Source of the DNA: Bacteroidia bacterium
GTDB lineage: Bacteria; Bacteroidota; Bacteroidia; UKL13-3
DNA: 64,000 nucleotides
Assembly: GCA_020049855.1 (NCBI GenBank)
Contig: JAGVLJ010000017.1
Coordinates: 1,239 to 65,238 of the forward strand
Reading direction: 5' to 3'
Position 1 is the stretch's first letter. Each line of letters begins with the position of its first letter. This document shows, piece after piece, positions 6,803-63,264 of this stretch. Made by a program: the position numbers and the translations under genes. Below the pieces are notes generated by a model, which was given only the letters and a program-made list of their open reading frames with translations, made no database searches and was not told the origin of the DNA.

Positions 6803-6968
6803 TTGTACGGCCACGTATGATGTAAATCAATTTCTCCTAGTTTTTATTTAAAACGGATACTCAAATGCCATGCACTCTGGTGCACCGGCAGTTGATTGCA
6901 AACTGAGGAAGATCATCGGTTTGATTCTTCAGTGACAGCGTACCTTTGACCAGATATTTTATGAAACA

Positions 6969-10184: not shown

Positions 10185-10940
10185 TTGTATACTTGCATTA
10201 TGAATAAGTACAGGTTGTTTCTGAGAAAAAGTTTCAGTTACTTTTTGATAGCAGTATTGATTATTGCGGGCTGTGCATTTTTCGTCCCCGAAAAAATTCC
10301 ATTAGTTTATAAAGTGCGGGCAGCAAGTATTAAAACCGCTCATCCGGGTTTAGTGATTATGTTGCACGGGTTGGGAAGCAATGAGGACGATATGTTTGGT
10401 TTAGCCACGCATTTACCAAAGGAGATGATAGTTGTTTCGGCTCGCGCACCTATTACATTGGCTAAAGATTCCTATGCTTGGTATAAGGTTGACCGAAGTA
10501 ATGGAAAGTTTATTTATGATGCATCCGAAGCCGAACGAGCCCGGGTGTTGATATCGCAATTTATTGATGCGGTAAGTAAAAAATTTAGGATAGATGCTAA
10601 ACGAATTTTTTTGTTAGGGTTTAGTCAGGGGGCAATTATGAGTTACAGCGTTGCTTTGTCCCAACCTGAAAAGGTAAAAGGGATAATGGCGTTAAGTGGT
10701 CGTTTAATGGCTGAGTCAAGAGTGAAAACCGGAAACCCAGATAAGCTTAAACAGCTTCAGGCGTTTATTGCACATGGCACTGATGATGAAATATTACCTG
10801 TAACTGATAGCAGAGAAGCTGCAGCTTTTTGCACAAGTGAAGGGGTGCAGGTGCTAATGAAAGAATACCCAATTAAACATCAAATTAGTGAGCAGGAATT
10901 GGCAGATTTGCTCCGTTGGCTAAATGCACAAAACATGTAA
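10185..10940 (+). CDS. Alpha/beta-hydrolase (phospholipase/carboxylesterase family)
   Basis: HGLGSNEDD motif and nucleophile elbow GFSQGA; the start may be the internal Met at 10200. Confidence 0.75.
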   Translation: MYTCIMNKYRLFLRKSFSYFLIAVLIIAGCAFFVPEKIPLVYKVRAASIKTAHPGLVIMLHGLGSNEDDMFGLATHLPKEMIVVSARAPITLAKDSYAWYKVDRSNGKFIYDASEAERARVLISQFIDAVSKKFRIDAKRIFLLGFSQGAIMSYSVALSQPEKVKGIMALSGRLMAESRVKTGNPDKLKQLQAFIAHGTDDEILPVTDSREAAAFCTSEGVQVLMKEYPIKHQISEQELADLLRWLNAQNM

Positions 10941-29452: not shown

Positions 29453-30133
29453 TTATTTTTTTGCGTGCTTGGTAAGTACTTCGTCAATCATTCCATAGGC
29501 CTTAGCTTCTTCGGCAATCATCCAGTAATCACGATCCGAATCTTTCCATACTTTATCAAACGGCTGACCACTGTGGTTCGCAATAATCTCGTAAAGTTCT
29601 TTTTTCAGTTTTTCAATTTCACGGTAGGTGATTTCGATATCTGAAGCTTGTCCCTGTGCCCCGCCCATAGGTTGATGAATCATTACGCGGGCATGTCTTA
29701 AAGCGGTTCGTTTTCCTTTGGCTCCGGCACACAGTAATACTGCTGCCATTGATGCCGCCATGCTGGTACAAATGGTGGCCACATCAGGGTTTACCCATTG
29801 CATGGTGTCATAAATTCCCAATCCTGCATACACCGAACCACCCGGACTGTTGATGTATAACTGTATATCTCTTTTCGCATCCATCGACTCTAAGAAGAGA
29901 AGCTGTGCCTGTATAATATTGGCGAAATAATCATCAACCTGCGTTCCAAGAAAGATAATTCTATCTGCCATTAAACGTGAAAAAACATCAATTTCCCTGA
30001 AGTTCATGGGGCGTTCTTCAATAACCGTTCTGGTCATATCTTTAACAGAACTTTTAATATATGACTCAACTTTTAAACTACTAATGCCAAGATGTTGGGT
30101 GGCATATTTTCTGAATTCAATTCCGTCATTCAT
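29453..30133 (-). CDS. clpP: ATP-dependent Clp protease proteolytic subunit
   Basis: Catalytic Ser/His/Asp context (GMAASMAA, HQP), 226 aa. Confidence 0.95.
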
Positions 30134-30267: not shown

Positions 30268-31707
30268 TTAATGACTGTGGACGCCCTCGTGGCTGTGCTC
30301 ATGTTGGTGCTCATGATTGTGAACATGTTCATGTTGCTGGTGATGGAGGTTGCTGTGTTCCTTCATTTTCTTGAAAAAATCATCAATCAATAGTTCTTTT
30401 TCCTCAATTGTAACCATATTCTTAAGCGCATTGATAACTTTAGTTTCAATGGCCATATTCAGCATGCGTGAGCGGTAGTTTTGATCTTTTAGCTGTTCTT
30501 TGGCGTAAGTTTCAAGGTAATCACTAACCGGAATATTCATATTATAACCAAAAAACATGCGTTTTGTGTAATTTACCGAGGCGTTTAATAAGTCCGGGTC
30601 TTCTATTTTTAATCCCTGATCTGCAATTACTTTTTCCTGAAAAAGTGTTGAACGCAGGTATTTTGCTTCAGGTTCATATTTATTATCTACCGTATCAGGA
30701 GTAAACTTATCTGGATGCCGATCAATAAGCCAACGCTTTAAGAAGGAGTCGGGCAAGGAAATAGAATGTTTCGCCAACATGGCATCAAATAACTCATGCT
30801 CCAGGGCATGATCCGCCTCTGATGCATAAAATTGCTTTAATTCTTCTTTTACTTTAGCTCTGAATTCTCCTTCGGTTTTAACGGAATTTTCGCCATATAC
30901 TTTATCAAAAAATTCCTGATTCATTTCAGCAAGTTCCTGTCTTTTGATTTCTATTACAGTAAAACTAAAAAGTCTATGTAAATCAGTTACGGTCTCTTTA
31001 CTAATTTTTAAAACTGTTGAAATTTCAGTTGTATTGTTATCAAACACTTCAAAAATATCGGCTGTCACCAAAGCCCCTGATTTCTGTCCGAGAAATGTTT
31101 TTTGTGTAGCCTCGTGTTTTATAGCCGACAGAAGAATTGGAAACTCGGCCTGAACTCCGCCTTCCCAAAAAGTTCCCTCCTCATTTAATTCTTTTGCATC
31201 TACAGTTAGTATATCGTTTGCCTCAGCAATGTCCACGCTAACTTGATTTCCGTACCGTTGCCTTGAGCGTTCCACTTCCTTTGAAATAAGGTCTTCGTCA
31301 ATAGTCGGAACATGTTTTACAAAATAATCATTCTTGGAAATGTTGAGGTCAAATTTTGGGGACAGGCCAATATCAAAACGAAATTTAAAGTCTTCAGTCA
31401 CCGTCCAATCATAGTTCTCGTTGTCGGCACTTAACACCGGTTGACCCAAAATTTCAAGCGCGTTTTCTTTAAGGTAATTGTTTAATACTTCAGACGTAAA
31501 ATTGTTCACCTCGTCAACTAATACGGCTGAACCGTACATTTTTTGAATCATGCCCATAGGGGCCTTTCCAGGTCTAAAGCCGGGAATATTAGCTCGCTTC
31601 TGGTAATTTTTCAGAGCCTTTTCAACGCGCGGGGCATAATCAGTTTTTGTTACGTTTACGGTGAGTACCGCGTTCAGATCGTCTTTGTGGTCAATAGAGA
31701 TGTTCAC
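30268..31707 (-). CDS. tig: Trigger factor with a His-rich C-terminal extension
   Basis: 479 aa with the ribosome-binding motif region (GFRPGKAP), a PPIase-like middle and C-terminal arm, plus a tail HHQQHEHVHNHEHQHEHSHEGVHSH. Confidence 0.9.
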   Translation of the reverse strand: MNISIDHKDDLNAVLTVNVTKTDYAPRVEKALKNYQKRANIPGFRPGKAPMGMIQKMYGSAVLVDEVNNFTSEVLNNYLKENALEILGQPVLSADNENYDWTVTEDFKFRFDIGLSPKFDLNISKNDYFVKHVPTIDEDLISKEVERSRQRYGNQVSVDIAEANDILTVDAKELNEEGTFWEGGVQAEFPILLSAIKHEATQKTFLGQKSGALVTADIFEVFDNNTTEISTVLKISKETVTDLHRLFSFTVIEIKRQELAEMNQEFFDKVYGENSVKTEGEFRAKVKEELKQFYASEADHALEHELFDAMLAKHSISLPDSFLKRWLIDRHPDKFTPDTVDNKYEPEAKYLRSTLFQEKVIADQGLKIEDPDLLNASVNYTKRMFFGYNMNIPVSDYLETYAKEQLKDQNYRSRMLNMAIETKVINALKNMVTIEEKELLIDDFFKKMKEHSNLHHQQHEHVHNHEHQHEHSHEGVHSH

Positions 31708-50908: not shown

Positions 50909-52222
50909 ATGAGCGAATCAAAAACACAATTGCCCTACAAAGTGAAAGACATCTCTCTGGCAGAGTGGGGGCGTAAAGAAATTAAATTGGCCGAGGCGGA
51001 AATGCCCGGTTTAATGGCTATTCGTAAAGAATATGGTTCCAAGCAACCCTTGAAAGGTGCCCGTATTGCCGGATGCTTACACATGACTATTCAGACCGCT
51101 GTGTTGATTGAAACCCTGAAACATCTTGGAGCCGAAGTTAGCTGGAGTTCATGTAATATTTTCTCAACTCAGGATCATGCTGCCGCTGCTATTGCCGCTG
51201 CTGGAATTCCTGTTTATGCTTGGAAAGGCCAGAACGAAGAAGAATTTGACTGGTGTATTGAACAAACCCTGCATGCATTTGAAGGAGGAAAAGCTCTTAA
51301 CATGATTTTGGATGACGGGGGAGATTTAACCAATATGGTATTTGACCGCTATCCTGAATTGACTAAAGATATTAAAGGTCTTTCAGAAGAAACCACTACC
51401 GGAGTTCACCGTTTATACGAGCGCATGAAAAAAGGTACTTTGGTTATGCCTGCTATTAACGTTAACGATTCAGTTACTAAATCTAAATTTGACAATAAAT
51501 ACGGTTGTAAAGAATCATTGGTTGATGCTATACGTAGAGCTACTGATATTATGATGGCTGGAAAAGTGGCTGTGGTGGCCGGATATGGTGACGTAGGAAA
51601 AGGCTCTGCTGAATCTTTGCGAGGTGCTGGAGCGCGTGTATTGGTAACCGAGATTGATCCGATTTGTGCCTTACAAGCTGCTATGGATGGATTTGAAGTT
51701 GTTACAATGGAAGATGCTTGTAAACGAGCTAATATTTTTGTTACTGCAACAGGTAACGTGCGTATTATTACCGACCGTCACTTTAAAGCCATGCGCGATA
51801 AATCTATCGTGTGTAATATTGGCCACTTTGATAACGAAATTGATATGGCCTGGTTAAATAAAAGCTACGGTTCTACCAAATATACTATTAAACCACAGGT
51901 TGACGTGTACAACCTTGACGGAAATGAAATCATCGTTTTGGCTGAGGGCCGTTTAGTAAACTTAGGTTGTGCAATGGGTCACCCTTCTTTTGTTATGAGT
52001 AATTCGTTCTCTAACCAAACCTTGGCTCAAATAGAACTGTGGACCAACAGCAGCAATTACGAAAACAAAGTGTATGTGTTACCAAAGCATCTGGATGAAA
52101 AAGTAGCTGCTTTGCACTTAGATCATATCGGAGCTAAATTGACCAAACTCGATGCCGATCAGGCTAAGTATATCGGTGTTAGAACCGAAGGTCCGTTTAA
52201 GGCGGATCATTACCGTTATTAA
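50909..52222 (+). CDS. ahcY: Adenosylhomocysteinase
   Basis: 437 aa with the NAD-binding GYGDVGKG motif and the SahH N-terminal substrate domain. Confidence 0.95.
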
Positions 52223-52244
52223 AATAGGAGCTTAAACAAAAGCG

Positions 52245-52284
52245 ATAAAAAAGAGCCGGTCAGAAATGATCCGGTTCTTTTTTT
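52245..52284 (+). terminator. Intrinsic terminator after ahcY
   Basis: aaaaaaGAGCCGGtcagaaatgatCCGGTTCttttttt. Confidence 0.6.
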
Positions 52285-52375
52285 GTATGGCATAAGGGTA
52301 ATTACTATTTCAGTTGTCTATATAAATATAATAGAAGAAATAAGTTGTACAATATATTTTTGCACCTGTTATCGG

Positions 52376-52951
52376 ATGCAAGCCACAGAAAGCCAAAATA
52401 TTTTTAACATACGCGAAGGTGATATCCGCTTGTTTGAACAGGTATTTCAGATGTATTGTAAGGAATTAGTGCGTTATGCAAATACAATATTAAAAAATGC
52501 AGATGAGGCTGAAGATATTGTTCAGCAGCTATTTGTTAATCTATGGCAAAAAAGGGAAAGCCTTCAGGTAAATACTTCCATGCGCAGCTATTTGTACCGG
52601 GCGGTACACAACTGTTGTTTAAATCGCATTAAACAATTATCGGTTAAGCAGACTTATACTACTTATATGGGTTATGCGGGAGAGCAGCATTCTGCACCAG
52701 CCTCGGCCGCCATTCAGCAAAAAGAAGTGGAAAAAGCGATAGGGGTGGCCATAGAGAAATTACCGGAACAATGCCGAAAAATTTTCAAATTAAGCCGGCA
52801 ACATGGAATGAGGTACCAGCAGATTGCAGATGAGTTGAACCTTTCAGTAAAAACGGTAGAGAATCAAATGGGAAAGGCATTAAAACATATGCGTGAGCAG
52901 TTAAAAGACTATTTACCCGGAGTAATCTTGTTTTTTTTATACCACAACTAA
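52376..52951 (+). CDS. ECF RNA-polymerase sigma factor (FecI-like)
   Basis: Sigma-70 region 2 (…FEQVFQMYCKELVRYA…) and region 4 HTH (…YQQIADELNLSVKTVENQM…); start taken at the internal Met MQATESQ rather than the ORF-track start at 52283. Confidence 0.85.
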   Translation: MQATESQNIFNIREGDIRLFEQVFQMYCKELVRYANTILKNADEAEDIVQQLFVNLWQKRESLQVNTSMRSYLYRAVHNCCLNRIKQLSVKQTYTTYMGYAGEQHSAPASAAIQQKEVEKAIGVAIEKLPEQCRKIFKLSRQHGMRYQQIADELNLSVKTVENQMGKALKHMREQLKDYLPGVILFFLYHN

Positions 52952-52953
52952 AA

Positions 52954-53946
52954 GTGACAGAGGATAAAACATATATTGATGAGTTAATTGCCAAATACCT
53001 GACTGGGGAAGCACTCCCAGACGAAGCCATTGAGCTGGAAGACTGGCGAAGTGCAAATGCAATTAACCACGATTATGTAAGCAAGGTAGAACAGGCTTAC
53101 CGAATCACCCATATGCTTCCCAAAGCAAAAGAAGTTGACCCCTATGAATTATTTGAGAAAGTGAAGACACAAATTACAGTGCCGCCTAAACAAAATGCCC
53201 TTGTGACTCACTTGAGAGATTATGCTACTTTGTGGCGAGTGTTGGCAGCAGTGTTTGTTCTTGGCCTTGGGGTAATTTTTGCCCTATATTTTATACTGGA
53301 TGCCAAAAAGGGGTTGAGTGTGTACGAATCGGGTAACGGGGTACTGAAACAAAAACTTGCAGACGGAACACAGCTGGAATTAATGGCTAATACCAAACTG
53401 GAATTAGTAGATAGCAAAAAGCGAAGGTTTCGTTTAAGCGGAGAGGCAACCTTTTATGTGGTTCACAATGCGTCTGATCCGTTTGTAATTGAGGCGGGCG
53501 GCATTCAAATTAAAGATATAGGCACCCTGTTTACCGTGAAGGCAATTGAAGGAAACGATTCAGTACACGTAAAAGTAGCTGAAGGTATAGTGCAGGTTTA
53601 TTCAGCATCCGATACTATAGAGTTACACCAGCACCAGATTGGGGTATTTATTCGCTCCACTCAGCGGTTAATTAATTTTTCGAAACGAAAGACTAATGAA
53701 AAAAAAATAGAGCGTGTATTTCATTTTAGCAACAGCGCACTTAAAGAGGCTGTGGAAATTATAAATGCAGCATACCCTGAAAAAATCACTTTAGCGGACA
53801 GGAGGCTGGAAAAATGCCTGATTACAGTTGATTTTAACGGGCAACCTATTGAAGAAATAATATCCATACTTGCAGAAACGTTAGGGCTGTCTTACGATAA
53901 AATACCCTCCGGATATCGCCTCAAAGGAACTGCATGTTTACCATGA
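52954..53946 (+). CDS. FecR-family anti-sigma factor / sensor (N-terminal anti-sigma domain, TM, FecR domain)
   Basis: 330 aa with a central TM (VLAAVFVLGLGVIFALYFIL) and a FecR-like periplasmic beta domain; starts 3 nt after the sigma gene stop. Confidence 0.8.
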   Translation: MTEDKTYIDELIAKYLTGEALPDEAIELEDWRSANAINHDYVSKVEQAYRITHMLPKAKEVDPYELFEKVKTQITVPPKQNALVTHLRDYATLWRVLAAVFVLGLGVIFALYFILDAKKGLSVYESGNGVLKQKLADGTQLELMANTKLELVDSKKRRFRLSGEATFYVVHNASDPFVIEAGGIQIKDIGTLFTVKAIEGNDSVHVKVAEGIVQVYSASDTIELHQHQIGVFIRSTQRLINFSKRKTNEKKIERVFHFSNSALKEAVEIINAAYPEKITLADRRLEKCLITVDFNGQPIEEIISILAETLGLSYDKIPSGYRLKGTACLP

Positions 53947-55784
53947 AATATTTTTTAATTTATTTTATGTCGGTTATTCTTTCTGTATCGCTCTGTTTTG
54001 CTTCAAATGTTCCTGCTTTAGAGCGCGAAGTAACTGTACGGGTGCAAAATGAACAGGTAAAAGAAGTACTTACATTGATGGCACAGCAGGCAGGCATTCA
54101 GTTTTCATACAATCCGGCTAAAATAACAGTAACAAATAGAGTATCGCTGTCTCTGCTAAAAAAACCGGTAAGGCTGGTGTTGAATATGCTGTTCAAAAAT
54201 ACGGTTCAGTATAAACAAAAGGGGAATTACATCATACTAATAGCCGCACCTTTACCTGAGGCAAATGTATTGGTAAAAAAAATTACCGTAAGTGGATACA
54301 TACACGATATAAGAGGGTATAAACTGATTGGAGCAAGTGTGCTCGATAAAAAAAATCAACTATCGGCAGTAACTAATGTGTATGGATTTTTCAGTTTGCA
54401 AATTCCTTACAATACTTTACCCATTGAAATGAGGGTGTTAAAGGAAAATTATCTCGACACTTCCGTTATTATTCAAACTTTAGAGAATACGATTGATATT
54501 ATTTTGCGAACGAAACCGGAGAAAATAATGCCCGTCATCCGGCAGGAAGCAGAGGTGAAAAAGATGAAAGAAAAACCGATGACGGCTGATAGTTTGACTT
54601 TGGAGCAAACCGATATTTCTCCAAACGTCAGCGTTAAGAAAAATTTTCTGGAGCAATTAGTGTCGCCACGCATAAAGGCCAGCCTGCACAATATTTCGGA
54701 TACCTTATTTACCCGTGTGCAATTTACATTTGTCCCTTACCTGAGCACTAACCAACTGCTATCGGGTAATACGATAAATGATTTTTCCTTTAATTTACTT
54801 GGAGGATATTCACAAGGAATTAATAAAGCCGAGTTTGGAGCCGTAATAAATATTGATCGTGGAGATGTTAAATATTTTCAGGCAGCAGGGTTAATGAATC
54901 TGGTAGGTGGTAATGTAAAAGGAGGACAGTTTGCAGGATTGCTTAATGTCAACAGGCAAACATTGTCAGGTGTGCACGTTGCTGGATTAATGAATATGAA
55001 CTTTGGAAAAGTTAAAGGGGTGCAGGTTGCGGGATTGATCAATATAGCCGACACAATAAGAGGTGTTCAGGTTGGCGGATTGGGGAATGTGTGTCGTTAT
55101 TTCAAGGGCGTTCAGCTATCGGGTTTGATTAATACCTGCGTAAAAGTTGATGGAGTGCAGGCGACATCGCTGGTAAATACTGCCGTGTCGGTAAATGGGT
55201 GGCAATGCGCTTCGTTAGTTAATGTGGCTGGCTATGTAAAGGGCCGACAGGTATCTTTTATCAATATAGCTGATTCCATTAATGGCACACCCCTCGGGTT
55301 TTTTAGTTATGTGGCTCAAGGATACCACAAATTAGAGTTATCGGGGGATGAGGTACTCTACAGTCAGTTTGCATTTCGTACCGGGGTTTTAAAGTTTCAT
55401 AATGTTTTATCGCTTGGGGTAAATCCTTATTTTTATGGAGCAACCTTTATAGGTGTAGGATATGGGTTTGGAAGTTATACTTCGCTTACTAAAAAATGGA
55501 ATTTTGGAGGAGATGTTTTTTCCCAATCTATTGTAAAAAATGCGAACTTTAGAAATGCACCTCTACTCACTTCGTTTTTTATCGGTTTTGAACGTAAAGT
55601 AACTCAACAATTTTCTATCACATTTGGTCCGGCTTTGAGGGCTTTACTCAGTTATTCGATTGCCAACGAGTATCTTGTAATAAGAGAACAACTTGCCCCT
55701 TATACTTTTGTCAACCATAGTTTCAACAATGGAACAAATTTGCAGATTTGGGTTGGTGGAAAAGTAGCTTTCCGCTTTTTATAA
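53934..55784 (+). CDS. Secreted STN-domain and CarboxypepD_reg-like protein with an array of 15-residue repeats and a beta-rich C-terminal domain (no TonB-dependent barrel)
   Basis: Signal peptide; STN-type segment (…VLTLMAQQAGIQFSYNP…); transthyretin-like segment (ITVSGYIHDIRGYKLIGASVLD…); then about 10 repeats of the form AGL[MLI]N-x9-G-x-Q-x. Confidence 0.6.
   Translation: MFTMKYFLIYFMSVILSVSLCFASNVPALEREVTVRVQNEQVKEVLTLMAQQAGIQFSYNPAKITVTNRVSLSLLKKPVRLVLNMLFKNTVQYKQKGNYIILIAAPLPEANVLVKKITVSGYIHDIRGYKLIGASVLDKKNQLSAVTNVYGFFSLQIPYNTLPIEMRVLKENYLDTSVIIQTLENTIDIILRTKPEKIMPVIRQEAEVKKMKEKPMTADSLTLEQTDISPNVSVKKNFLEQLVSPRIKASLHNISDTLFTRVQFTFVPYLSTNQLLSGNTINDFSFNLLGGYSQGINKAEFGAVINIDRGDVKYFQAAGLMNLVGGNVKGGQFAGLLNVNRQTLSGVHVAGLMNMNFGKVKGVQVAGLINIADTIRGVQVGGLGNVCRYFKGVQLSGLINTCVKVDGVQATSLVNTAVSVNGWQCASLVNVAGYVKGRQVSFINIADSINGTPLGFFSYVAQGYHKLELSGDEVLYSQFAFRTGVLKFHNVLSLGVNPYFYGATFIGVGYGFGSYTSLTKKWNFGGDVFSQSIVKNANFRNAPLLTSFFIGFERKVTQQFSITFGPALRALLSYSIANEYLVIREQLAPYTFVNHSFNNGTNLQIWVGGKVAFRFL
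54770..55340 (+). repeat. Degenerate 45-bp (15-codon) tandem repeat array inside CDS 53934-55784
   Basis: Protein-level periodicity …AGLMNLVGGNVKGGQF / AGLLNVNRQTLSGVHV / AGLMNMNFGKVKGVQV / AGLINIADTIRGVQV / GGLGNVCRYFKGVQL / SGLINTCVKVDGVQA…. Confidence 0.7.
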
Positions 55785-55838
55785 TTTTTTTGAGGGGGAT
55801 AGGGGTAGTTTTTCTCAAGCTTGTCGTAGGTGTAAATA

Positions 55839-56867
55839 TTGAGCAACATGAAAGTAATTATACCCGTTCATCTGGCCGCTGCAGCAGTTTTTATGCTTCT
55901 TTTTTTTTCTTCTTTTGCGCAGAATGCAACTACGTACAAAGGCACTATTTATACGTTTATAGTTAATAAAGTACCTGATCATTTTCCGGCTCCATTGGTT
56001 GGGTTTGTAAATATGGCACAAGGAAGCCAGACTGGAGCACAGATTGGATTTTTAAATCAGAATCAAAAAAACATTAATGGAACTCAGATTGGATTTGTAA
56101 ACAATGTCGGTGGTTATTTCAACGGATCACAAATCGGATTTGTAAATCTCAGCCGGAAATATGTAAGCGGTGTGCAAACGGGTTTTGTAAATCTGTGCAA
56201 CGATAGCTTCACAGGAGCACAGATTGGCTTTGTTAACGTGGTAAAAGATTCTATGGTTGGCACCCAAATTGGATTTGTTAATGCAGCGACTAAAGGGTTA
56301 AAGGGTATTCAGTTCGGTTTTGTGAATATCTCGAAAAATGGTATTGCGGGGTCGCAGATTGGATTTGTAAACATTGCCGATTCAATGCGACAGGGCATTC
56401 CGTTGGGATTTGTTTCCATAGTGCGAAAAGGAGGTTTCAGTGCGTTTGAAATCGGCACGTCCACTTTATTTCTTTCCACTCTATCCTATAAAATTGGTAT
56501 TCCTACACTATATACTTCGGTTATACTCTCGTTCAATCCGTCATATACTAATCAGTTTGCCTATGGTATCGGATTAGGGTCTATGATCAGGTTGAACAAA
56601 ACATTTGGATTTAACCCCGAGGCAACCATTCAAAATTCTATGGAGCAGCACACGCAAATGTTTTCCACTCTCGCTTCGTGTTTCAGCATCCGTATAACTC
56701 CAAAGACTTTGTTGGTGGCAGGGCCATCCGTTAGCTGGATACATAAAGATTCCCGTTCTGGCGAAACTTTATACAAACCGACCTATTCACTTTATCATTA
56801 TAGCTATAACTACCGCAACGATTTAACCGTAGGAACTCAGGTATCCCTTCGGTTTAAACTCAATTAA
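55839..56867 (+). CDS. Secreted paralogous repeat protein (15-residue [IT]GF[VL]N-x9-G-x-Q repeats plus a beta-rich C-terminal domain)
   Basis: Signal peptide MKVIIPVHLAAAAVFMLLFFSSFAQ; 8-9 tandem repeats (QIGFVNNVGGYFNGS / QIGFVNLSRKYVSGV / QTGFVNLCNDSFTGA / …); C-terminal about 170 aa of alternating hydrophobic pattern. Confidence 0.6.
   Translation: MSNMKVIIPVHLAAAAVFMLLFFSSFAQNATTYKGTIYTFIVNKVPDHFPAPLVGFVNMAQGSQTGAQIGFLNQNQKNINGTQIGFVNNVGGYFNGSQIGFVNLSRKYVSGVQTGFVNLCNDSFTGAQIGFVNVVKDSMVGTQIGFVNAATKGLKGIQFGFVNISKNGIAGSQIGFVNIADSMRQGIPLGFVSIVRKGGFSAFEIGTSTLFLSTLSYKIGIPTLYTSVILSFNPSYTNQFAYGIGLGSMIRLNKTFGFNPEATIQNSMEQHTQMFSTLASCFSIRITPKTLLVAGPSVSWIHKDSRSGETLYKPTYSLYHYSYNYRNDLTVGTQVSLRFKLN
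55990..56425 (+). repeat. Degenerate 45-bp tandem repeat array (recurring cagattggatttgtaaac core) inside CDS 55839-56867
   Basis: DNA-level recurrences of CAGATTGGATTTGTAAAC-like 18-mers at about 45-bp spacing. Confidence 0.7.
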
Positions 56868-56938
56868 TCAGTTTATTTCCATTCGCTGAAACTTTTTTTC
56901 ATCATTCAATTAAAACTAAATTCCATGATCCGTATAGT

Positions 56939-59293
56939 ATGAAAAAACAATTTATTCTTCTTGTGTTAGGCGTTAGTGTATTGACATGTGCATCGGCTCA
57001 ACAGTTTACCCAAACCGTTCGCGGCAGTGTCATTGATAAAATTTCTCAAAGACCTATTCCCGGAGCCATTGTTACAATTGAAAATTCAAATCCGCTTAAT
57101 GGAACAACTACTGATATAAATGGGAAATTCGCGTTGAGGAATGTTTCCGTTGGACGACAAAGTATTAAAGTTACTTACATTGGGTACAAAGATTATATTC
57201 TTCCCAACATTGTAGTAAACTCGGGGAAAGAGGTTGTGCTAACCATTCAGCTTGAAGAATCAATTGTGGTTAAACGCGAAGTAGTAGTAAGGGCAACCCA
57301 ACAAAAAAATAAACCTATTAACGAGCTTGCTTTAGTAAGTGCTCGGACTTTTTCAATCGAGGAAACGCAAAAATTTGCAGCTGCGGTAAATGATCCAGCA
57401 CGTATGGCAACTTCGTTTGCCGGGGTGGTTCAGGTGGAGGATGGGAACAATGGAATTTCTATTAGGGGGAATTCGCCCAATGGAATGATATGGCGTCTGG
57501 AAGGTGTAGATATACCCAACCCGAATCATTTTTCCAATGTGGGCACTTCCGGAGGAGGTATTTCTATCCTTAGCGTTCAGTTGCTAAGCAACTCTGACTT
57601 TATTACGGGAGCGTTTTCCTCCGATTATGGGAATGCTCTTTCTGGTGTATTTGATTTAAAACTTCGAAAAGGAAACAACGAAAAGCGGGAGTTTACTTTA
57701 CAGGCAGGATTTCTTGGCTTGGATTTCGCTGCCGAAGGGCCGTTAAAAAAAGATTATGAAGGTTCTTACCTCATTAATTACCGCTACTCTACACTTTCAA
57801 TTTTAAATAAACTTGGAATTAATGTCGGAGAGGGAGTTACCAATTTTCAAGACTTATCGTTTAATCTTTTTTTCCCCAGTAAACAGTACGGCTCATTTGG
57901 TTTTTTTGGTTTTGGCGGATTGAGTAATCAAAACTCAGAGGCAGTAAAAGATTCAACTGTGTGGCTTGATGAAATTTATAAACAATATACCTCGGTATAT
58001 GTTGCCAATACAGGAGCCGCAGTTCTTAATCATACCCTGCAAATTCGCAAAAGGTCTTTTATTAAAACTTCTTTGGTAGCATCTGGGAATCTTAATAAAG
58101 ATGTTGCCGATAAGTTAAATAAGAATTATGAACTAAGGCGTAATACTTATTCAGAAGCAGGGCAAAGTAAAGTTGCACTAAACTCTATTTTTTCGACTAA
58201 AATAAATGCACACAGCAGTTTTAAACTAGGGTTAATTTATAGTTTGCTTCACTACGACCTAATCAAGAAGAAAACATTGATTGATTCAGTTAATACACTT
58301 AAAACATGGATTAATACAAACGGGCGTACTGCTACTTTACAGTTTTTTGGAAATTGGAGCTACAAAATTTATCAGCGGTGGACCACCAATGTAGGGTTGC
58401 ATTACCTTCAGCTAATGCTAAACAACTCTCAGTCGCTTGAGCCACGCGTATCAGTAAAATACGATGCAAGTTCCAAGAGTGCTTTTGCAGCGGGTTATGG
58501 TTTACAAAGTCAAATTCAACCTCTCGGAGCCTACTTCACAACAGACGCTCTCACCAATCAACCTATAAACAAAAACCTTCTTTTGAGTAAAGCTCATCAT
58601 CTCGTTTTGTCTTATGATTACAGCATCTCTGTGCATACTCATATTAAAACCGAGGGGTATTATCAGGACTTGTTTCACATACCCATAAGTCGTGATAGCG
58701 GCAGTACAATGTCACTGCTTAATGTAAGGGATGGATTTACAACAGAAAAATTGACTTCTGATGGTAAGGGGAGAAATTACGGTGTGGAAATTACCGTAGA
58801 AAGATTCCTGCACAAATATTTTTATTACCTTCTTTCAATTTCACTATTTGATTCAAAATACCGAGCTGCTGATGGGAATTGGTACAATACCCGTTTCAAC
58901 ACTAATTTTGCAAGTAGTTTTACCGGGGGGAAAGAGTGGAAACTTTCCGAGAAACATAAAAATAAAGTGATTGGCCTAAATATAAAGGTTATTTATACTG
59001 GTGGTACCCGAACTACCCCAGTTGATTTGCCTGGATCAATTGCCTCGGGTAATGAGGTAAATCAAACATGGAACGCATTTACAAAGCAAAATCCTTCCTA
59101 TTTTAGGTTGGATACGAAAATAAGTATTAAGCGCAATTTTGCACACTCAACAAGTTCATTGGCACTGGACATTCAAAATACCACCAATCACAAAAATGTA
59201 GGAGGGCAATATTTTGACGTTAATAGTGGGAAAATTAAATTCTGGTATCAGTCTCCTTTAATTCCGGTGCTTAGTTATCGGCTTGAGTTTTAA
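56939..59293 (+). CDS. TonB-dependent receptor (CarboxypepD_reg-like N-terminus, plug, 22-strand barrel), with no STN domain
   Basis: Signal peptide then CarboxypepD_reg-like segment (VRGSVIDKISQRPIPGAIVTIENSN…NGKFAL); plug; long barrel ending …LSYRLEF (C-terminal Phe). Confidence 0.8.
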   Translation: MKKQFILLVLGVSVLTCASAQQFTQTVRGSVIDKISQRPIPGAIVTIENSNPLNGTTTDINGKFALRNVSVGRQSIKVTYIGYKDYILPNIVVNSGKEVVLTIQLEESIVVKREVVVRATQQKNKPINELALVSARTFSIEETQKFAAAVNDPARMATSFAGVVQVEDGNNGISIRGNSPNGMIWRLEGVDIPNPNHFSNVGTSGGGISILSVQLLSNSDFITGAFSSDYGNALSGVFDLKLRKGNNEKREFTLQAGFLGLDFAAEGPLKKDYEGSYLINYRYSTLSILNKLGINVGEGVTNFQDLSFNLFFPSKQYGSFGFFGFGGLSNQNSEAVKDSTVWLDEIYKQYTSVYVANTGAAVLNHTLQIRKRSFIKTSLVASGNLNKDVADKLNKNYELRRNTYSEAGQSKVALNSIFSTKINAHSSFKLGLIYSLLHYDLIKKKTLIDSVNTLKTWINTNGRTATLQFFGNWSYKIYQRWTTNVGLHYLQLMLNNSQSLEPRVSVKYDASSKSAFAAGYGLQSQIQPLGAYFTTDALTNQPINKNLLLSKAHHLVLSYDYSISVHTHIKTEGYYQDLFHIPISRDSGSTMSLLNVRDGFTTEKLTSDGKGRNYGVEITVERFLHKYFYYLLSISLFDSKYRAADGNWYNTRFNTNFASSFTGGKEWKLSEKHKNKVIGLNIKVIYTGGTRTTPVDLPGSIASGNEVNQTWNAFTKQNPSYFRLDTKISIKRNFAHSTSSLALDIQNTTNHKNVGGQYFDVNSGKIKFWYQSPLIPVLSYRLEF

Positions 59294-59344
59294 TTTAAGT
59301 AGGGATGCGAAGAGGTAATTGACAAGATGGGTTAAAGTACGTTT

Positions 59345-59566
59345 TTATGCCACCGTTATGATTTTAACCGGACAGGCCGCTGCTGCTTTGCGGTTGATGT
59401 CTTTTTCATCTTCGTGTACTTTTACGCTCCAGAATTTATTTTTTTCTTTTGCACCAATCAAAACACTTTTCCCATCTTTTTTTGACATTACCCATCGTTG
59501 CGGAGCAAACTCCACACAATAGTTGCATCCAATGCATTTGTCGCGTTGCTGAATGATTGTTATCAT
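59345..59566 (-). CDS. Small 4Fe-4S ferredoxin
   Basis: 73 aa with a CIGCNYC cluster motif plus a distal Cys-Pro (AAACPV); overlaps the upstream U32 gene by 4 nt. Confidence 0.7.
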   Translation of the reverse strand: MITIIQQRDKCIGCNYCVEFAPQRWVMSKKDGKSVLIGAKEKNKFWSVKVHEDEKDINRKAAAACPVKIITVA

Positions 59567-60804
59567 GCCTGCACACTTGCCAATTTGTACAGCTTATCAC
59601 TTTTGCGAACGGGGGTATCTAATTTAAATGCACATTTGTCACCCTTGCTCACTTCTTCCACCGGGCCTTGGTCGGTGTGCAGTTCATTCACAGTTGTTTC
59701 AATAACACCTGTTGTAGGGCCGGTGATTAAAATACTGTCGCCTGTTTTAAGTGTATGCGATTCAACAATAAATTCGGCCACACCTATTTTACTAAAATAG
59801 TTATTGCCTTTCCCTATGTAAATTTTTTTCAGTTTCGCTTTCGAACCTGAGGTATCGGTCCATTCTCCTAATTTCTGGCCTAGGTAATAACCGCTCCAAA
59901 AACCCCGGTTGTATACTTCCTCCATACGCTCTTTCCATTTTTGTGCTTTTTCAACTGTATAATTACCTTCCATATATGCGTCAACAGCTTCGCGGTAACA
60001 TTGCGTAACAGTTTTAACATATTCGGGTCCTTTGCCCCGGCCTTCAATTTTTAAAACCGACACACCTGCATCCATCACTTCGTTTAAAAAATCGATGGTG
60101 CATAAATCTTTGGCCGACATAATATACTCATTGTCTATTTCCATTTCGTGGCCTTCTTCATTATCAATAACGGTGTATGTTCTTCGGCAGTTTTGCGTGC
60201 AGGCTCCGCGGTTGGCCGATGAATTTTGCATGTGTAAACTCAGGTAGCACTTGCCCGATACCGCCATACATAGGGCACCATGTACAAAAATTTCAATTTC
60301 AATCAATCGGCCCGAAGGGCCTTTTATCTGTTCCTGTTTTATCGTGTCGGTTATTTTTTTTACCTGTGTTAAGCTTAGTTCGCGGGCAAGCACAATAGTA
60401 TCGGCAAACAGTGAGTAGAATTTTACCGTTTCAATATTAGTTACATTAAGCTGGGTTGAAATATGCACCTCCATACCCACACTTCGCGCATAGGAAATTA
60501 CCGACTGGTCAGAGGCAATTACAGCCGTAATACCCGCTTCTTTGGCACCATTCACTAGGGTTTTAACCAATGTAAGGTCGTGGTCGTAAATGATGGTGTT
60601 TAGGGTAAGGTACGAACGAATTCCGTGCGATGCGCAGGTGCTTGCCACTTCTTTCAGGTCATCGGCTGTAAAATTCATAGTGGCACGGGCACGCATGTTC
60701 AGTTGCTCCACGCCAAAATACACGGAGTCGGCCCCTCCTTGAATGGCTGCCATCAGCGAGTCGAACCCACCTGAGGGAGCCATTATTTCTACTTTGCGAT
60801 TCAT
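59563..60804 (-). CDS. U32-family peptidase-like protein (RlhA/TrhP/UbiU-type Fe-S enzyme family)
   Basis: U32 signature E-x-F-x-H-G-A-x-C-x4-G-x-C (EIFVHGALCMAVSGKCYLS); start taken at the internal Met MNRKVEIMAPSGG. Confidence 0.85.
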   Translation of the reverse strand: MNRKVEIMAPSGGFDSLMAAIQGGADSVYFGVEQLNMRARATMNFTADDLKEVASTCASHGIRSYLTLNTIIYDHDLTLVKTLVNGAKEAGITAVIASDQSVISYARSVGMEVHISTQLNVTNIETVKFYSLFADTIVLARELSLTQVKKITDTIKQEQIKGPSGRLIEIEIFVHGALCMAVSGKCYLSLHMQNSSANRGACTQNCRRTYTVIDNEEGHEMEIDNEYIMSAKDLCTIDFLNEVMDAGVSVLKIEGRGKGPEYVKTVTQCYREAVDAYMEGNYTVEKAQKWKERMEEVYNRGFWSGYYLGQKLGEWTDTSGSKAKLKKIYIGKGNNYFSKIGVAEFIVESHTLKTGDSILITGPTTGVIETTVNELHTDQGPVEEVSKGDKCAFKLDTPVRKSDKLYKLASVQA

Positions 60805-60849
60805 TGCGGCAAAGGTACATTTTTCAGTTGATTGTTGTAATTTCGGGCA

Positions 60850-61581
60850 GTGATAAATTCCAATGCACATATGCCAATACAGGCTGACGGGGTTCCGGTG
60901 CTGATACGGCAGCCGCTAATGTGCTGTTTTTCTCCGGCTGCTTGCAGCAAATGGGCCGTGGTTCAAATTACCCAACCGCAGCAGTGCATCGTTGCTGAGG
61001 CCATTTACCTTATTAACAAAACATCACTGCCCGGAGATTTCGCTCCGTTGGCCGACAAATATCAATTGGCCGCATGGGTAGATGCCACCTTGCCGCTGGC
61101 TGAATTAATTCAATACATGCTTGTATGGAAAATGCAGCTTCCTTCGTTGTGGCTGCTGGCCGCTTTGCCACCTGGTAGTGAACCGTTGCAGCCATTTTTA
61201 TATCTGGGTTTTGATGGTTTTATTCTTGACTCGGCAGCAGATGAGCGCTTGTCTTCATTGGCAGGTATGCTCAGGCCGACTACACAGGTGCTTAGCTCCG
61301 AGGTAAAAGAAAAACTCGAAACCCTGCGACTGCAGGTAGATGATACCGACCATCAACTTATTGCTTTATTGGCTCAGCGCACCCGCCTTATTAAGCAATT
61401 GGCTGAGTTAAAAAAGCAGGCACAGCTGGATATTTTACAGCCGGCCCGATGGTCGCGCGTGTTAAAGGATGCCGTACTTACCGCAAAGGCAAATGAGGTG
61501 AGTTTATCCGTGCTGCTCTCGGTCCTGGATGCCATTCATTTGGATGCGGTGGAGCAGCAGTTAAAGCATTATGAGAAGTAG
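60850..61581 (+). CDS. Two-domain protein: N-terminal domain of unknown function (GC-rich, about 140 aa) fused to a C-terminal AroQ-class chorismate mutase domain
   Basis: C-terminal 100 aa (…LRLQVDDTDHQLIALLAQRTRLIKQLAELKK…PARWSRVLKDAVLTAKANEV…) resembles the CM_2 three-helix fold with conserved Arg/Lys/Glu. Alternative starts exist at 60871 or at the Met preceding LRPTTQV. Confidence 0.55.
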   Translation: MINSNAHMPIQADGVPVLIRQPLMCCFSPAACSKWAVVQITQPQQCIVAEAIYLINKTSLPGDFAPLADKYQLAAWVDATLPLAELIQYMLVWKMQLPSLWLLAALPPGSEPLQPFLYLGFDGFILDSAADERLSSLAGMLRPTTQVLSSEVKEKLETLRLQVDDTDHQLIALLAQRTRLIKQLAELKKQAQLDILQPARWSRVLKDAVLTAKANEVSLSVLLSVLDAIHLDAVEQQLKHYEK

Positions 61582-61585
61582 TTGG

Positions 61586-62152
61586 TCAATCTTCAATCAC
61601 AATGCCGTAGTGTTGCAGTAATCCGCTAAGGCCTTGTGTGGAGAACCGGGCTTTTTTAATTTTGTTTTTATCGGGGTAAATGGAGTAGTTAAATGCTGTA
61701 CGCAAATCGGCTTTTTCCAGCGTGGTTTGATCAAATGTGGCCAACTGTAAATCGCAGTTGTTAAAAACAGCCTGTGTAAAATCGGCAGCGGTAAAATCGG
61801 CTTCGTGCAGTTGACAATTGGTAAACAGGGTTCCTTTCAGTTTCAGGTTGTAAAAAGATACCATGCTCATCAGGCAATTTTCAAATTGAAGTGAAAGTAA
61901 AAATGGATTACACTGTGCAAAGGATAAACCCAGCAGCTTACAGTTTAAAAAATGGTTGCTTTGAAAAGCGGTATGGTTAAGCTTAGCCAAACTGAGGTTG
62001 CTGTGATGCCAGGTGCAATCAATAAATTTTATACCTGATAAATCAGCCTGGCTTAGTTCGCAGTGTTCAAAGCGGCATTTTTCATACTCACCCGCCAGTG
62101 CGGGAGTGCCTGTAATGGTTTGCTCAAAGGTATATTTGCTCATATTTTGCAA
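61586..62152 (-). CDS. Pentapeptide-repeat protein
   Basis: 188 aa of tandem A(D/N)LxX-type pentapeptide repeats (…ADLSGIKFIDCTWHHSNLSLAKLNHTAFQSNHFLNCKLLGLSFAQCN…). Confidence 0.8.
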   Translation of the reverse strand: MQNMSKYTFEQTITGTPALAGEYEKCRFEHCELSQADLSGIKFIDCTWHHSNLSLAKLNHTAFQSNHFLNCKLLGLSFAQCNPFLLSLQFENCLMSMVSFYNLKLKGTLFTNCQLHEADFTAADFTQAVFNNCDLQLATFDQTTLEKADLRTAFNYSIYPDKNKIKKARFSTQGLSGLLQHYGIVIED

Positions 62153-62253: not shown

Positions 62254-63264
62254 CTATTTCAGAAGCAGTAATGAAAGAAATAGAACACTTATCAAAACTA
62301 GTTTGACAATAAAGCTTTTGAGGGTTACAAATTTGTATTCTTCTCTTTCTTTTATGAACGGATTAAGAATATTTATGATCTGAATTGTAAGAAGATAGGC
62401 CGGGATTTTTTTATACCAACTAAAGCCAAAGTAGTGGTCATAGATTTCTAAGTTTATACTTTCCGTACGGAAAGTAAATAAAGGAATTAATAAAATTCCT
62501 GCTAAGCCAAATATGATTTCAAGTGAGTTTGGAAGTTTAGACTTTAAAATACTCTTAGTCTCTTCATATATATACGTTAAATTAATATTCTTCATTGCAG
62601 AACAATCAACCACGAGAAGTGCTCCATGTATTTCTACAGGAACTCTTTTCCCATCTATAGAGCTATATCTTTCGACATTTTTAACGAACACCTTACTTAA
62701 GGTGCTACAATCATTATCGTTCAATTCATAGTCAACTACAATTCCTGAATATAGAAGTGTGGTACTGTTAGAATCAATTAGGATGTCAGCTTTAGTAAAA
62801 AGATGTTTTTTATCTCTTTCTTTGATATTTTTGAGTTTTTTAAAACCAGTTTGTTGTCCGTTAAAAATGTAGAACCAAGAATTTTTAAAACGTAACATTT
62901 TGAATTTGGTATCAATCCTAGTAATTCTAATTATTCTACCTAACAAAAGACCAAGTATAATACTTAGTAAATATTGAAATCCAACAAATGGATCCACCTT
63001 TTTAAAAATTACTTCATTTAGTGGGATGTCGTTTGATTTTTTTAACCTAAAGGCGGGGTTATTTATGTCTTTAAATTTATCAATGATTGCACTAAGATCT
63101 ATTTCAGTGAATAGATAACAGTAAGAGAGAAAAGATAAGATTACAATTATTAATCCGGGAATTACCGATACCGCAAGTAAACTTACTAAATTATGACCAG
63201 AGTTGAATTCGTTTAAGAATTCTCCATAAAAATATAATCTTCTAAACAACAATCCTGGAAACAA
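62254..63264 (-). CDS. Hypothetical multi-pass membrane protein in an AT-rich island
   Basis: 336 aa with hydrophobic helices at both ends and a K/N/I-rich soluble middle; no recognisable motif; local GC clearly below its flanks. Confidence 0.5.
   Translation of the reverse strand: MFPGLLFRRLYFYGEFLNEFNSGHNLVSLLAVSVIPGLIIVILSFLSYCYLFTEIDLSAIIDKFKDINNPAFRLKKSNDIPLNEVIFKKVDPFVGFQYLLSIILGLLLGRIIRITRIDTKFKMLRFKNSWFYIFNGQQTGFKKLKNIKERDKKHLFTKADILIDSNSTTLLYSGIVVDYELNDNDCSTLSKVFVKNVERYSSIDGKRVPVEIHGALLVVDCSAMKNINLTYIYEETKSILKSKLPNSLEIIFGLAGILLIPLFTFRTESINLEIYDHYFGFSWYKKIPAYLLTIQIINILNPFIKEREEYKFVTLKSFIVKLVLISVLFLSLLLLK

Follow-up and report, generated by a model that had tools for sequence, protein, structure and literature searches.

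The window analysed here is a stretch of 64,000 nt from a Bacteroidia bacterium (assembly GCA_020049855.1, contig JAGVLJ010000017.1, positions 1,239 to 65,238, forward strand; window positions are used below). At 52376-59293 it carries five genes, which code for an extracytoplasmic function (ECF) sigma factor, a FecR-type anti-sigma factor, two repeat proteins and a TonB-dependent transporter. A preliminary description, made from the sequence alone, had proposed that the STN signalling domain of this locus resides on one of the repeat proteins instead of on the transporter. The five open reading frames (ORFs) are present in the order and at the positions given there, all on the forward strand:

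52376-52951 (+): sigma, an ECF sigma factor of the Bacteroidetes subfamily, 191 aa (TIGR02985, Sigma70_r2, r4_2, Sigma70_ECF)
52954-53946 (+): FecR, a FecR-type anti-sigma factor, 330 aa (PF04773, PF16344, hydrophobic segment)
53934-55784 (+): STN-NTE-solenoid-barrel protein, 616 aa (alternative start ATG 53943, 613 aa)
55839-56867 (+): LA_2272-family paralog, 342 aa; a signal peptide precedes about nine 15-residue coils (aa 53-197), and a barrel forms the C-terminus
56939-59293 (+): TonB-dependent transporter, 784 aa, with an NTE (aa 26-106), REVVVRA (aa 113-119), plug and barrel, and without an STN

The STN-bearing solenoid protein and its neighbours

The 616-aa protein matches STN (PF07660) over aa 55-104 with 27.8 bits, just below the cut-off of 28.4, and CarbopepD_reg_2 over aa 119-195 with 24.7 bits (cut-off 32.2). 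It has no Pfam match to Plug or TonB_dep_Rec, and TIGR04056 covers aa 117-161 only, at 19.7 bits compared to a cut-off of 368. The borderline scores of the window protein are secured at the family level: among 67 homologs, STN is matched in 47 (best E 2e-13), CarbopepD_reg_2 in 66, and a plug or barrel in none. The sequence also exhibits a 15-residue periodicity (lag-15 identity 0.25 versus 0.083 +/- 0.021 in shuffled sequences, z 7.9). The AlphaFold model of the protein, built from the 67-sequence alignment (mean pLDDT 87, rising to 93-98 across the repeats), shows a signal peptide, an alpha/beta STN, an Ig-like NTE, a disordered stretch, a cap, about 11 coils and eight long C-terminal strands, in that order, wherein each 15-residue unit (xNxxxxxxxGxQxAGL) supplies two short strands. 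The segments of the protein are as follows:

54027-54245 (+): STN domain, aa 32-104 (PF07660; model versus the PupA periplasmic signalling domain 2a02, TM 0.70)
54279-54506 (+): NTE, a CarboxypepD_reg-like Ig-fold domain, aa 116-191
54507-54641 (+): disordered, length-variable linker with a D-S-L sequon, aa 192-236
54642-55313 (+): conserved cap (aa 237-300) and about 11 15-residue coils, modelled as a beta-solenoid to aa 460
55329-55781 (+): C-terminal eight-stranded OmpA-like beta-barrel, aa 466-616, the predicted outer-membrane anchor

Foldseek matches the C-terminal part of the model to the OmpA transmembrane domain, and the solenoid resembles curli CsgA and adhesin passengers. A hydrophobic/aromatic face alternates with a polar/glycine face in the barrel strands, the chain ends in ...AFRFL, and the protein has no large surface loop. 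From the model we infer that the barrel anchors the protein in the outer membrane. Even-stranded barrels start and finish on the periplasmic side; on these topological grounds, the solenoid, linker, NTE and STN would all be periplasmic. The most conserved part of the protein in the 67-sequence alignment is the cap.

The STN-like and CarboxypepD_reg-like segments named in the preliminary description are thus recovered by both the family-level Pfam matches and the model; the repeat array, described there as possibly a beta-solenoid, is modelled as one with high confidence, and the small beta-rich domain at the C-terminus as an eight-stranded OmpA-like barrel. A plug and 22-stranded barrel, which would have made the protein an ordinary SusC-like transducer, were looked for and are absent, both from the 67 members and from the model, and an ordinary transducer in which these parts had been overlooked is thereby excluded. 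Nor is it a degenerate remnant of a SusC gene, since hundreds of clusters conserve the protein over its full length. Recent repeat expansion at the DNA level is likewise excluded, as the repeat regions contain no tandem DNA repeat.

Ordinary transducers encoded after sigma-FecR pairs (loci L025-L033) share about 30% identity with the STN-NTE portion in their N-termini; three of them have the order STN, NTE, Plug, barrel. Because of this homology, the 616-aa protein looks like a transducer N-terminus that has been grafted onto a solenoid-barrel module of the LA_2272 type. As a separate observation, the STN precedes the NTE in the ordinary Bacteroidota transducers L026:8007-10625, L029:7956-10568 and L033:7971-11369, in contrast to the order stated for SusC proteins, in which the NTE is said to precede the STN (PMC7782687).

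The linker has pLDDT values below 50 at aa 201-235. Its sequence is not conserved among the homologs, and the distance from the last NTE strand to the first strand of the solenoid cap ranges from 50 to 95 aa, about 12 ordered residues included. Linkers of the family are rich in D[ST] dipeptides (256 observed versus 69 +/- 7 expected) and in D[ST]-hydrophobic motifs (68 versus 7.4 +/- 2.8). The D[ST] sites are followed by A/I/L/V/M/T in 79% of cases, and a hydrophobic residue at +4 is weakly enriched (42% versus 31%). Across 114 homologs, D[ST][AILVMT] occurs 3.1 times per 100 aa of linker and 0.47 times elsewhere, a difference of about 6.6-fold. The pattern D-(S/T)-(A/I/L/V/M/T) is the O-glycosylation sequon of Bacteroidota (PMC8550257). 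The window protein contains such sequons at D219-S-L in the linker and at D256-T-L just beyond. These features suggest that the linker is a periplasmic, glycan-protected tether that is probably O-glycosylated. A TonB box (DTLVVTA-like) is not claimed for the linker, the residue preferences of which match the O-glycosylation sequon, and the motif analysis of the homologous linkers revealed no recognisable TonB box in the 616-aa protein.

The 784-aa protein scores 62 bits with CarboxypepD_reg and has a weak match to Plug (18.2 bits, cut-off 23.9) and no Pfam match to STN. PF07660 is also found in none of the 120 closest homologs listed, which are 56-100% identical over their full length; many of these carry PF07715 or PF00593, several are named TonB-dependent receptor, and those at 56-63% identity carry both families. 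An STN on this protein would have removed the argument for a split system; it was searched for and none is there, in agreement with the earlier view that the receptor begins directly with CarboxypepD_reg. The transporter model was used for fold class only (pLDDT 57.7), and its top 50 Foldseek matches are all TonB-dependent transporters (E from 6e-13, about 600 columns). Mean column identity is 71% in a 17-sequence alignment, and identity across orders is 44-64%. The TonB-box-like segment REVVVRA at aa 113-119 follows the NTE (family consensus xEVEVxA) and bears a resemblance, of pattern only, to DEVVVTG of BT1763 (PMC7782687).

The 342-aa protein aligns to residues 349-615 of the 616-aa protein (BLASTP, 27% identity over 301 aa, E 9e-17), and its 15-residue periodicity is pronounced (lag-15 identity 0.46, z 16.1 versus shuffles). 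On these two grounds it can be regarded, as proposed, as a paralog with the same repeats and C-terminal domain. It matches NF047436 in five stretches with 101.7 bits (cut-off 25); the same profile gives no match to the 616-aa protein at E up to 1.

Profile searches of the sigma protein gave 178.4 bits for TIGR02985 (cut-off 126.4), together with matches to Sigma70_r2, r4_2 and Sigma70_ECF. The FecR protein matches PF04773 (48 bits, aa 126-213) and PF16344 (FecR_C; 28.7 bits, aa 256-315), both above cut-off, and contains a single hydrophobic segment at aa 96-115. It is predicted to consist of a cytoplasmic N-terminus, a membrane segment at aa 96-115 and periplasmic FecR and FecR_C domains. The locus therefore includes a Bacteroidetes-type ECF sigma factor and a single-pass FecR-type anti-sigma factor with a C-terminal STN-like domain, as expected for cell-surface signalling, whereas one defining feature of such systems, an STN on the transporter polypeptide, is lacking.

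Conservation of the gene cluster and its shared promoter motif

The STN-solenoid family comprises 1185 clusters at 50% identity with E <= 1e-30, and its members occur in Cytophagales, Flavobacteriales (Fluviicola), Sphingobacteriales, Bacteroidales and unclassified Bacteroidia. The closest relatives of the window are uncultured Bacteroidia represented by metagenome-assembled genomes, with 75-76% identity. Gene order was assessed from both ends of the cluster: genomes were scanned for homologs of the STN protein with a profile made from 13 sequences, and the transporter side was sampled by taking the best 80 metagenome loci according to the transporter profile alone. The loci are related by descent, and their counts do not represent independent events.

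The sigma and FecR genes are found directly upstream of every full-length STN-solenoid homolog with enough flanking sequence (6 contigs and 27 genome loci). Of about 20 STN-centred loci, 14 continue with the conserved transporter, which is either the next gene or separated by an LA_2272 paralog or a DUF2807 gene. Viewed from the other side, 38 transporter-picked loci have at least 5 kb upstream; the full trio of sigma, FecR and STN-solenoid genes is present in 34 of these, an STN-solenoid gene without the full trio in two, and neither in two, such that the STN-solenoid gene lies beside the transporter in 36 of the 38. The gene order is hence conserved in relatives, and this linkage in both directions, combined with the ECF-type promoter common to the sigma operon and the transporter (see below), sustains the earlier treatment of the five genes as one functional unit.

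The intervening gene is more variable. Among 55 loci with both an STN-solenoid and a transporter gene, 13 have an LA_2272 paralog, about 20 a DUF2807 lipoprotein and 23 neither of them; since 23 loci carry no accessory, the 342-aa paralog is an optional, lineage-specific component. Its place is often held by another membrane-anchored beta-helix protein, namely a DUF2807 lipoprotein (about 240 aa, E 1e-28 to 1e-43). Downstream of the transporter nothing recurs except the DUF2807 lipoproteins, and no inner-membrane transporter or enzyme is conserved there.

The DUF2807 ("head GIN", beta-helix) genes either follow the STN-solenoid gene and precede the transporter or lie just 3' of the latter. They occur in L002, L034, L037, L038, L040, L042-L046, L054, L058, L060, L062 and L068-L070, and also in L082, L093, L098 and L108, with the same promoter motif upstream of them; most of the encoded lipoproteins have basic residues after the lipid-modified Cys. 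Other proteins in the accessory position are a 252-aa secreted TPR-like protein (L052:7069-7827) and a PepSY_like lipoprotein behind a promoter motif (L068, about 10430-10920). Extra STN-less copies of the solenoid protein, each behind its own promoter motif, are found in L017:10263-11671, L044, L051:10458-, L086 and L106; these retain the solenoid cap (DT[LI][FY]..VQ.S..P...TN), the repeats and the barrel.

Within the 160 nt 5' of the sigma genes, 48 of 54 loci contain the motif nnATAGGGGTAA-N10-AGTTGTC(A/T)T, which has the layout of a putative ECF promoter. A position weight matrix (PWM) built from the sigma-upstream sites, with a threshold of at least 18 bits, yielded 144 sites in the 1.33 Mb of loci and 0 in five shuffles, these being of the same loci only. 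The core motif TAGGGGTAA-N10-AGTTGTC precedes the sigma gene (53 sites), the transporter (49 sites) and the paralog (8 sites). The transporter sites lie 0-108 nt before the transporter start, nearly all of them within less than 60 nt, and most of the remaining sites (about 20) precede DUF2807 lipoprotein genes in the same clusters. The motif is also retained in L042, a transporter locus without the trio nearby. The corresponding elements of the window, together with the hairpins adjoining them, are:

52249-52285 (+): probable terminator, hairpin GAGCCGG...CCGGTTC followed by TTTTTTT, 3' of the upstream ahcY
52290-52326 (+): ECF-type promoter motif P1, AAGGGTAA-N10-AGTTGTCTAT, PWM 30.9, 5' of sigma and just after the ahcY terminator hairpin
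52354-52361 (+): possible basal promoter TATTTTTG, which fits TAnnTTTG, between P1 and ATG 52376
55755-55790 (+): terminator-like hairpin with a T-run that closes the 616-aa gene; its 8-bp stem has 3 GC pairs and runs into TTTTTATAATT, and the consensus is matched only weakly
55797-55833 (+): ECF-type promoter motif P2, ATAGGGGTAG-N10-GCTTGTCGTA, PWM 17.9, before the paralog and transporter genes

The score of P2 compares with no site of at least 16 in shuffled windows, and an equivalent site precedes the paralog in L004, L005 and L007-L011. No PWM site is present in the 71-nt gap before the transporter, and for this reason the transporter is probably co-transcribed with the paralog. The first three genes are separated by a gap of 2 nt (sigma-FecR) and an overlap of 4 nt (FecR-616-aa gene), with one promoter upstream of the three, as would befit the single transcript proposed for them previously. 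The locus accordingly reads as two putative sigma-dependent units, one consisting of the sigma, FecR and STN protein genes and the other of the paralog and the transporter. The position and conservation of the motif suggest that it is used by this sigma factor. The element TATTTTTG conforms to TAnnTTTG, which we take to be the housekeeping -7 element of Bacteroidota, and TAnnTTTG(C)-like elements occur near the sigma start in most loci.

A third, weak promoter-like site in the window (29781-29817, +, 16.5 bits) falls within clpP on the antisense strand and was regarded as a chance match. In L032, an ordinary STN-transducer locus, the GGGTAA...TTGTC matrix has matches at 6810 and 12481. The motif may be common to related sigma factors, and not private to the split system.

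Gene callers place the start of the 616-aa protein at ATG 53943 (the database homolog entry has 613 aa), a codon that overlaps the FecR stop as ATGA, and the gene may start there. For the paralog, ATG 55848 is the most likely start codon (339 aa), because the promoter motif ends at 55833. A long sigma ORF from TTG 52283 is not the gene, as the promoter lies within it. The hairpin and T-run at 52249-52285 are likely to shield the locus from transcription of the upstream ahcY. An Rfam search of 52000-59700 matched no RNA element.

Elsewhere in the window, G+C is raised at 60000-61600 (0.46-0.49 versus about 0.38 in the surroundings). In a 243-aa ORF at 60850-61581, the match to chorismate mutase type II is confined to the last 80 residues, the first 150 being without a family. 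A 336-aa hydrophobic ORF (62254-63264, -) lies in a stretch of G+C 0.30-0.33 and has no Pfam match, and a trigger-factor-like gene (30268-31707, -), which adjoins clpP-clpX, codes for a histidine-rich tail, HHQQHEHVHNHEHQHEHSHEGVHSH.

Comparison with known signalling systems

The system was compared with four groups of known proteins. Like the SusC-type transducers of Bacteroidota, it includes a TIGR02985 sigma factor and an anti-sigma factor with FecR and FecR_C domains; the order sigma, anti-sigma, STN-bearing outer-membrane protein is the same, the N-terminus has the STN-then-NTE arrangement at about 30% identity, and a putative sigma-type promoter is situated ahead of the transporter gene. 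Unlike in those systems, a linker, a beta-solenoid and an eight-stranded barrel replace the TonB box, plug and 22-stranded barrel, the transporter is encoded by a separate, STN-less gene, and there is no SusD-like gene. As in FecA-FecR-FecI and FoxA-FoxR-FoxI, an outer-membrane STN would be combined with an inner-membrane FecR-type regulator and an ECF sigma factor that activates the transporter gene, and in those systems binding of the STN protects the regulator (PMC11637429). There, however, the STN is part of the transporter and a TonB box is needed, whereas here two polypeptides are involved and the STN protein shows no recognisable TonB box.

A precedent for an STN domain on a non-transporter is provided by PUMA3 of Pseudomonas aeruginosa, in which VreA is encoded next to the ECF sigma factor VreI and the FecR-like VreR (PMC2729926). 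A periplasmic contact with the regulator has been proposed for VreA as well (PMC2729926). VreA nevertheless differs in being a 23-kDa, mostly soluble periplasmic protein with a second domain like the C-terminus of TolA/TonB and no NTE, solenoid or barrel; the gene order and the phylum are different, and its regulon consists of secretion and virulence genes rather than a transporter. As the C-terminal part of the modelled 616-aa protein is a solenoid and barrel, we regard it as an analogue of VreA and not a member of its family.

The fourth comparison concerns the LA_2272 family (NF047436/NF047435) and the VC2662 family. The 342-aa protein scores above the NF047436 cut-off and is paralogous to the half of the 616-aa protein that comprises solenoid and barrel; stand-alone LA_2272 members are known in Bacteroidota and spirochaetes. 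The family has been named from sequence only, with no STN, NTE or sigma/anti-sigma link in the family as named, and no functional or structural paper on it was found in the literature.

NCBI names the two repeat proteins [quoted passage not shown] and "LA_2272 family surface repeat-containing protein". Literature searches (LA_2272, STN, DUF2807-TonB, Bacteroidetes cell-surface signalling) returned no description of this architecture or gene cluster. The earlier opinion that the architecture is undescribed holds to that extent; it must be qualified in that both families already bear domain-based names at NCBI and in that VreA is a precedent for an STN on a non-transporter.

Possible mode of signalling

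We consider it moderately likely that the locus is a cell-surface-signalling regulon of the ECF sigma/FecR type in which the STN and NTE have been moved from a SusC-type transporter onto a separate protein, which operates by the following relay. The 616-aa protein would sit in the outer membrane by means of its eight-stranded barrel, and its rigid beta-solenoid, about 5 nm long, would project into the periplasm, where the flexible and probably O-glycosylated tether would hold out the STN and NTE. The STN would bind the periplasmic C-terminal (STN-like) domain of FecR and thus cap it, and through this binding the anti-sigma factor would stay intact and hold the sigma factor inactive, as in FoxA/FoxR of Pseudomonas. 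In that system, binding of the signalling domain protects the anti-sigma factor, and the FoxA signalling domain is itself cleaved (PMC11637429). Substrate loading of the STN-less transporter, engagement of TonB or a change in the envelope would alter the contact between STN and FecR, upon which FecR would be degraded. The freed sigma factor would then transcribe from the TAGGGGTAA-N10-AGTTGTC promoters, i.e., its own three-gene operon and the accessory-transporter operon. Candidate routes from the transporter to the STN are a lateral barrel-barrel contact, the conserved solenoid cap, or competition of the two NTEs for a partner such as TonB.

More tentatively, and with some doubt, the solenoid could be a rigid periplasmic strut that sets the depth of the STN-NTE and thereby reads the separate STN-less transporter, the engagement of TonB or the geometry of the envelope. 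Transport and transcription would then be coupled through two proteins, a mode without a published description and one widespread in Bacteroidota, with the accessory solenoids (LA_2272 paralog or DUF2807 lipoprotein) as part of the assembly.

Several points weigh against this relay. The STN and NTE scores of the window protein both fall just short of the curated cut-offs, the AlphaFold model of the transporter is of low confidence (pLDDT 57.7), and the periplasmic placement of the solenoid follows from general topology rules for even-stranded barrels. About one quarter of the STN-centred loci (e.g., L001, L003, L014 and L021) have no transporter beside the trio, so the STN protein does not strictly need an adjacent one. 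The 616-aa protein has no recognisable TonB box, and because its linker motif fits the O-glycosylation sequon better, the usual TonB-dependent signalling lacks an obvious handle. Finally, the contact of the STN protein with FecR and, above all, the coupling between transporter and STN are steps that we infer.

The loci that hold the trio without an adjacent transporter would be readily understood if the solenoid protein were an autonomous envelope sensor, which perceives damage, an assembly defect, spacing or a periplasmic ligand and informs FecR, the transporter and accessories being only outputs. Such a sensor would also agree with a regulon that adds outer-membrane-anchored beta-solenoids (LA_2272 paralog or DUF2807 lipoproteins), not uptake or catabolic genes, and with the lack of a conserved inner-membrane transporter or enzyme downstream; furthermore, beta-helices of the DUF2807/DUF4097 type accompany envelope-stress systems in other phyla. 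We nevertheless judge it unlikely. Linkage of the transporter to the trio holds in 36 of 38 loci picked independently, and the transporter carries a promoter motif of its own. Its unusually high conservation (44-64% identity across orders) is what cognate receptors show in known cell-surface-signalling systems, and conservation of the solenoid protein peaks at the cap and not at a ligand-like pocket.

It is less probable still that the STN protein acts as a non-sensing brake, which stabilises FecR constitutively in a negative feedback while the inducer enters elsewhere, for example at the periplasmic domain of FecR. Signalling is indeed inhibited when signalling domains are over-produced, and in Pseudomonas the STN has a protective effect on the anti-sigma factor (PMC11637429). 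The sharing of an autoregulated operon with sigma and FecR, and the lack of a recognisable TonB box or a large surface loop in the 616-aa protein, would be in keeping with this function. Yet a brake would require neither a solenoid, cap and barrel kept over more than 1000 clusters nor tight linkage to one transporter family. The name "surface repeat" in NCBIfam, the presence of Leptospira homologs among predicted surface proteins and the solenoid's structural likeness to curli CsgA and adhesin passengers might instead evoke solenoids of the 616-aa and 342-aa proteins that are displayed at the cell surface in an adhesin- or curli-like manner, the STN having another role. This we find very improbable, since an eight-stranded barrel has no passenger pore, the STN and NTE are on the same side of the first barrel strand as the solenoid, and the linker carries O-glycosylation sequons of the periplasmic type. 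In every characterised protein, moreover, the STN and NTE are periplasmic (PMC7782687, PMC11637429).

In textbook cell-surface signalling a single polypeptide both imports and signals, and the two jobs are difficult to tell apart, whereas in this cluster they have come apart in evolution. A large share of environmental Bacteroidota (more than 1000 clusters) have retained, under the probable control of a single sigma factor, both a transporter that lacks an STN and an STN carrier that does not transport. If the proposed relay is true, three matters would become open to direct test: the way in which a TonB-dependent transporter makes its occupancy known within the periplasm, the function of the enigmatic NTE, and whether STN domains serve mainly to protect the anti-sigma factor. 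The cluster also provides a first functional context for two uncharacterised solenoid families, the LA_2272 repeats and the DUF2807 lipoproteins. Its promoter motif can be used for regulon prediction in any genome of the phylum, and the substrate of the conserved transporter is a target worth identifying.

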